Source: a phage. From it: DNA of 64,000 nucleotides. The translations under genes and the position numbers were made by a program. Positions 41,833-42,291 of this stretch are shown here, piece by piece; position 1 is the stretch's first letter; each line of letters begins with the position of its first letter. The stretch lies in the sequence record PZ452598.1; one strand, 5' to 3'. The notes below the pieces were generated by a model, which made no database searches, had not been told where the DNA came from, and worked only from the letters and a program-made list of their open reading frames with translations.

Positions 41833-42291
41833 TTATTTTAAATCATCTGCCCAATCGAGTTTAAGAGGCTCTTTGTATTCACGATCTAATACGACCGGAA
41901 TTTGTACATCACCGCTAAATGATAAGGGCCCAACATTATAAGACAATGTTATATGCGGTGTGTAATCATCAAAATCATGTGTAGCACCTAGTGCCCGCGC
42001 ATACATGTGTCGACAGCGCAGATATTCAGAATCTAGCACAAGTACAAGAGTCGATCCATCTTGTGTTTTCCATACTTCTAAATGTCCAGAAGAAGCTACT
42101 TCAAAACTTCCACTCGATGGAACATATGGAACATTTACTCTTGAATAACATATAGTCGAATGAATTTTTTCTCTAGGAACTGGATTAGGAACACGTAAAG
42201 AGCGCTGAAGTTCTTCCAGCGCATCAAGTGTTAATTCTGAAAACTTAGCTGCTACATAAAGACCCGTTGAAAAGTCTTTAAATTCCATCAT
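41833..42291 (-). CDS. 57B: 2H-phosphoesterase-family protein gp57B (anti-CBASS nuclease Acb1 in T4)
   Basis: 152 aa with two H-x-T/S motifs (HSTI, HITL) typical of 2H phosphodiesterases. Length and position match T4 57B. Confidence 0.8.

Follow-up and report, generated by a model that had tools for sequence, protein, structure and literature searches.

The open reading frame at 41833..42291 (minus strand) of the window, meaning the whole 64,000-nucleotide stretch of phage DNA analysed here, is almost certainly T4 gene 57B, also called acb1, which encodes the 2H phosphoesterase Acb1 (152 aa plus stop codon); we put the probability of this identification at about 0.97. It draws on identity with T4 at the DNA level, on the Pfam Acb1 profile (E 2.7e-60) and on the match to a crystallised Acb1 (PDB 7T26, E 4.2e-62).

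Identity and published function of gene 57B

Over all 459 bases, the gene agrees at 100% identity with 57B as deposited in 16 phage T4 records, AF158101.6 and NC_000866.4 among them. Because positions 30000-54000 of the window match T4 records at 100% identity across the whole 24 kb, the window, judged by its nucleotide sequence, is phage T4. The encoded protein is in every respect that of characterised T4 Acb1 (gp57B, NP_049750.1; Hobbs et al. 2022, Nature 605:522), with the same gene, length (152 aa), catalytic tetrad and genomic position, and no difference between the two. A sequence-only reading of this DNA had proposed that 57B encodes a 2H phosphoesterase matching T4 Acb1, and this was right: the DNA is T4 57B itself, and both the Pfam Acb1 profile and PDB 7T26 recognise its product. 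Alignment to characterised Acb1, which that reading had named as a check, returned the E value of 4.2e-62 against 7T26 together with the 100% DNA identity to T4 57B. The identification is correct and was already known, so that the gene itself brings nothing new, and its presence in a T4 window adds no knowledge.

Two consecutive ATG codons (window 42286-42291) stand at the start of 57B, the first of which overlaps the TGA stop of 57A as ATGA. In the 1985 record X03016 translation begins one codon later, at the second ATG, and the protein is 151 aa long, as are most homologues. Short open reading frames of 47 and 54 aa also occur on the plus strand within 57B; we took these to be chance products.

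The function of the protein has been established directly. Hobbs et al. (PMC9117128) fractionated T4 lysates for activity cleaving 3'3'-cGAMP, traced this activity to gene 57B, and gave the product (NP_049750.1) the name Acb1. The recombinant T4 enzyme is active, a H44A/H113A mutant is inactive, and the catalytic tetrad was defined as H44/T46/H113/T115; activity starts about 15 min into infection, and a lysate of T4 delta-acb1 loses cGAMP cleavage (PMC9117128). On CBASS hosts the same deletion phage is impaired >300-fold, and on hosts that lack CBASS it grows normally (PMC9117128), and an independent transposon screen found acb1 dispensable on K-12 and depleted on a CBASS host. Cleavage of cGAMP, plating on CBASS strains and mutation of the catalytic histidines, the experimental checks put forward by the sequence-only reading, have thus been in print since 2022, each with the predicted outcome (PMC9117128). 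Both the chemistry and the phenotype come from published experiments on exactly this protein.

The mechanism is as follows. Acb1 is a metal-independent enzyme of ~17 kDa with a 2H-phosphoesterase fold. Its ligands are the cyclic di- and trinucleotides that host CD-NTases produce (3'3'-cGAMP, cUA, cAAA), and its aromatic side chains stack on the bases in a way that strains the ring. The H44/T46/H113/T115 tetrad then catalyses attack by an adenosine 2'-OH on the 3'-5' phosphodiester bond; a 2',3'-cyclic phosphate forms as intermediate, and the opened ring ends as a linear product, GpAp for example. Once the signal is gone, the effectors of CBASS are not activated and the infected cell escapes premature death.

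How far the enzyme's natural targets extend is a separate question. Acb1 cleaves cAAA, and the authors suggest that it could help in evasion of type III CRISPR (PMC9117128); in addition, type I and type II Panoptes systems restrict phages with an intact acb1, and phages that escape them carry mutations in acb1 (PMC13577387). These observations would suit a reading in which CBASS is not the only or the main target, in which any defence signalling through cA3-type molecules (type III CRISPR, for example) is affected, 'anti-CBASS' is too narrow a name, and the enzyme is costly to the phage where Panoptes is present. We consider this somewhat unlikely on present evidence: it extends the Acb1 explanation and does not contradict it, and in the literature examined CBASS evasion is the only role directly shown for T4.

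Catalytic motifs, fold and the 'RNA ligase' label

A script run on the sequence finds exactly two H-x-[ST] motifs in the 57B protein, HSTI and HITL, at residues 44-47 and 113-116, just as the sequence-only reading had described for this 152-aa product. The first (H44-S45-T46-I47) lies at 42151..42162 and the second (H113-I114-T115-L116) at 41944..41955, both on the minus strand. Taken alone, the bare motif is weak and non-discriminating evidence, because at least two copies are also carried by 4 of the 40 window open reading frames of similar size (100-200 aa); identification was therefore rested on homology.

The homology evidence spans the entire protein. Pfam PF23474 (Anti-CBASS protein Acb1) scores 202.7 bits, where the cut-off is 27 (E 2.7e-60), and covers profile positions 1-144 of 144; the crystallised Acb1 of Erwinia phage FBB1 (PDB 7T26/7T27) matches at E 4.2e-62. 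In an alignment of 15 homologues reaching down to 36% identity, the four tetrad residues H44, T46, H113 and T115 are invariant, as are Y12 and E141, and each of the ligand-contact residues named in PMC9117128 (Y12, W74, F107, E141, W147) is present at its position in 57B. The full-length profile match, the HxT/HxT tetrad and the base-contact residues place 57B, on sequence grounds, within the Acb1 family.

An AlphaFold2 model built from the 15-homologue alignment (mean pLDDT 87.6) points the same way. It predicts the architecture of Acb1, namely a compact 2H fold in which the pocket is U-shaped and the C-terminus forms a lid, and Foldseek superimposes it on 7T26 with a TM score of 0.87 (query) or 0.96 (target) and an rmsd of 0.9 A. 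Residues 147-152 of the lid are modelled with low confidence, as expected of a flexible element. FBB1 Acb1, solved as the apo form (7T26) and with 3'3'-cGAMP product (7T27), is about 65-68% identical to 57B and has the same catalytic and base-stacking residues; it differs in coming from another phage genus, in a one-residue insertion after residue 80, and in having Tyr where 57B has F107. Burkholderia phage BCSR5 Acb1 (9Q2G, 9Q2Y) is likewise a phage 2H enzyme whose two HxT motifs align with those of 57B, but it represents a distant branch: its structural match to the 57B model is clear (Foldseek E 5e-8, TM about 0.65-0.70), whereas the sequence match is marginal (E 0.004, about 17-18% identity).

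Beyond Acb1, the next Foldseek matches are LigT, CPDase, Usb1, the 2',5'-PDEs coronavirus (MHV) ns2 and rotavirus VP3, AKAP18 and the penguinpox cGAMP PDE (9BKQ), with E values of 1e-4 to 0.2 for the first six. These enzymes have two HxT/S motifs and the 2H fold in common with 57B, and several are likewise viral proteins whose action is to break down a nucleotide signal of immunity (2'-5' oligoadenylate or cGAMP). The two H-x-T/S motifs and the predicted pseudo-twofold beta fold place 57B in the 2H phosphoesterase (LigT-like) superfamily. The cellular and viral 2H enzymes nevertheless stand well apart from it, with TM scores of 0.4-0.58, no match at the level of sequence and other substrates; Acb1 differs further in its smaller size and its C-terminal lid.

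This wider kinship bears on an alternative in which 57B is a LigT-like RNA 2',3'-cyclic phosphodiesterase or 2'-5' RNA ligase acting on RNA ends, as in tRNA repair. Such a role would fit the 2H fold and its likeness to E. coli LigT (Foldseek E about 1e-4), the presence of the T4 tRNA cluster near 57B, and the name 'RNA ligase' given in PHROG 755 and RefSeq. We judge it very improbable. A Pfam search at E<=0.1 returns only Acb1 and no LigT-type family, and the model has a TM score of just 0.45-0.56 to LigT, against 0.87 to Acb1. Direct biochemistry shows cleavage of cyclic oligonucleotides, the phenotype is specific to CBASS, and T4 delta-acb1 grows normally in hosts without CBASS (PMC9117128). 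An NCBIfam scan of the protein gave no match, and NCBIfam has no model for Acb1; membership of an RNA ligase family accordingly finds no sequence match in either resource (no LigT-type family in Pfam at E<=0.1, nothing in NCBIfam).

We found no experiment supporting the 'RNA ligase' label, which appears to have been carried over from the LigT-like fold. Other records name 57B a 'hypothetical protein' or even a 'distal tail protein'. The naming in RefSeq (NC_000866.4) and PHROG 755 is a systematic mis- or under-annotation of a characterised anti-defence gene, and the label hides that gene in hundreds of phage genomes.

Promoters and the boundary between 57B and ipI

On the strand of 57B, the T4 annotation gives the gene order 4, 2, 3, 1, 57A, 57B, ipI, trna.4, trna.3, trna.2, followed by the tRNA cluster and segB. 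Gene 1, encoding dNMP kinase (42530..43255, minus strand; Pfam DNMK 4e-107, annotation), is the first of three tightly packed genes: its stop overlaps the start of 57A by 1 nt (TAATG), and 57A, encoding the tail-fibre chaperone (42288..42530, minus strand; Pfam GP57 5e-51, T4 annotation), lies directly upstream of 57B with a 4-nt overlap (ATGA). The mechanical open reading frame list stretches gene 1 to an upstream TTG (42530-43294; 254 aa compared with the annotated 241 aa), and does the same for gene 3 (43305-43916; 203 aa compared with the annotated 176 aa); these extensions are artefacts of open reading frame calling, not alternative starts.

The shared gene number and the ATGA overlap between the end of 57A and the beginning of 57B could be taken to mean that 57B assists 57A in assembling the tail fibres, and the adjacency of the two genes is kept in Tequatrovirus, Dhakavirus, Acinetobacter phages and RB43. 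We give this next to no credence: T4 delta-acb1 plates like wild type where CBASS is absent (PMC9117128), transposon data show the gene to be non-essential on K-12, and the 57B product is an enzyme whose active site is conserved, unlike the chaperone-like coiled coil of gp57A. Nothing speaks against the identification as Acb1.

Upstream signals for the three-gene unit are present in the sequence and are annotated in X03016 (window coordinate = 43668 - record coordinate). The middle promoter PM1 (MotA box aaTGCTTCA, 11 nt, TATAAT) lies just upstream of gene 1 at 43281..43305 (minus strand), where X03016 annotates 'PM1' at 363-387. Because a loose MotA-box pattern is weakly enriched in the window (34 sites observed, 19 expected), what speaks for PM1 is where it lies, its perfect TATAAT and its annotation by the depositors, not statistics. 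The late promoter PL1, TATAAATA at 42885..42893 (minus strand), is situated inside gene 1, upstream of 57A-57B, and corresponds to the 'pot. -10 region (PL1)' of X03016. A second MotA-box-like site, TGCTTTAG...TAAATT at 42765-42788 (minus strand), is also found inside gene 1, ~235 nt upstream of 57A; it has no annotation in X03016 and may be a chance match.

Directly downstream of 57B is ipI, encoding the internal protein I precursor (41472..41759, minus strand; Pfam IPI_T4 7e-54, annotation). IPI is injected and inhibits the type IV restriction enzyme GmrSD (PMC12373910, PMC3012670), and the sequence-only reading had correctly placed an injected anti-restriction protein beside 57B. The 73-bp spacer between the two genes contains the early promoter sequence GTTTACA-N17-TACTAT, preceded by TG, at 41819..41791, as part of an element (41774..41819, minus strand) in which the early promoter PE2 is combined with a stem-loop whose inverted repeat surrounds the -10 box, as annotated in X03016. 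A second element of this kind, PE1 with its stem-loop (41418..41455, minus strand), lies downstream of ipI and upstream of trna.4, with its promoter (TTTACA-17-TACTAT) at 41452..41424; X03016 annotates PE1 here, and the stem-loop as 'pot. IpI terminator'. The two elements thus bracket ipI and are near-duplicates, 83% identical over about 100 nt, with stems that differ in sequence and occupy the same place around the -10 box.

With 0.09 sites expected, the pattern GTTTAC-N15-TG-N-TANNNT is found 9 times in the window, each time on the minus strand, and so represents a real promoter class and not chance. Folding of the 57B-ipI spacer gives a hairpin of -20.5 kcal/mol (z -5.0); the corresponding value for the PE1-element hairpin is z -2.3. 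A generic terminator scan from gene 1 to trna.4 found no canonical intrinsic terminator, and the spacer hairpin, a putative terminator, is followed by AAAAUUAAUU, not by a U-run. PeSLs (promoter-early stem-loops) are composite terminator/promoter cassettes with the PST/T4 consensus TTTACW-N17-TAYWAT (PMC4122927). In the 57B-ipI spacer an early promoter and a predicted stem-loop occur together beside variable accessory genes, which suggests that it is a PeSL, and both ipI-flanking elements resemble the PeSL cassettes of T4-like phages (Arbiol et al. 2010; Comeau et al. 2014) in consensus, stem-loop and location beside such genes. GenBank X03016 calls them PE2 and PE1 with stem-loops.

A 2026 expression atlas finds 57B/acb1 to be predominantly middle/late, in agreement with the onset of enzyme activity at 15 min (PMC9117128). 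The arrangement that we propose has 57B as the 3' end of a translationally coupled unit, 1-57A-57B, which would be driven by PM1 and PL1, with a composite stem-loop/early-promoter cassette that would separate it from ipI. From the promoter sequences, the GenBank annotation and the published timing we infer that ipI has its own early promoter and that acb1 is not an early-class gene. Late read-through from PL1 through the stem-loop may still join acb1 and ipI at the time when packaging needs IPI. The sequence-only reading had put 57B and ipI into one early operon, of which the adjacency and shared strand hold and the single early operon does not, given PE2 in the spacer and the position of 57B behind PM1 and PL1 with middle/late expression. 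Adjacent co-oriented T4 genes are not necessarily one operon, since promoter/stem-loop cassettes separate them.

Homologues and the variable slot after 57B

Homologues of the 57B protein fall into 68 clusters, all with PF23474 except for one 99-residue fragment, and tblastn detects relatives of Acb1 in 1486 phage records, among them phages of Escherichia, Klebsiella, Acinetobacter, Vibrio, Aeromonas and other hosts. One cluster representative, 99% identical to the T4 protein, is entered as 'hypothetical protein [Enterococcus faecalis]' on a 3-kb contig; this is most likely contamination of the assembly by a T4-like phage and not a Gram-positive homologue. The homologue of the RB43/KP27 type is longer (207 aa in RB43, 2459-3082 of the extracted locus) and aligns with residues 10-127 only, so that, as far as its sequence indicates, the C-terminal lid with E141 and W147 appears to have diverged or been replaced.

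Dhakavirus JS10, an Acinetobacter phage and RB43 all retain the order 3-1-57A-57B, and the genes that follow 57B differ. In JS10 (NC_012741.1) the slot occupied by ipI in T4 contains two unannotated open reading frames (2956-3165 and 3246-3539 of the extracted locus), the N-termini of which, MKSYKEFLTE and MKTYQEFIKE, resemble capsid-targeting sequences. The first has a GTG start that overlaps the 57B stop, and the second has on either side the promoter/stem-loop arrangement seen around ipI, with other stem sequences. Both are probably unannotated genes for internal (injected) proteins, and this content agrees with published work describing a hotspot for injected Ip proteins directed against different GmrSD enzymes (PMC12373910, PMC3012670).

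These comparisons allow a tentative reading, which we regard as possible and well short of even odds, in which 57B is the fixed anchor of an anti-defence recombination hotspot. A conserved 1-57A-57B block in the Straboviridae would be followed, after acb1, by a slot holding varying injected-protein cassettes flanked by PeSLs (ipI in T4, the two open reading frames with capsid-targeting-like N-termini in JS10), acb1 and the GmrSD inhibitors would together form a modular anti-defence island, and late co-transcription from PL1 would supply IPI for packaging. If true, this would be a modest synthesis, the ip hotspot, the PeSLs and Acb1 having mostly been published separately. The significance of the gene itself lies in what is already established for its product: among phage enzymes that overcome cyclic-oligonucleotide immunity by destroying the signal, Acb1 is the founding example, and it is also a target sensed by decoy-signal guard systems such as Panoptes.
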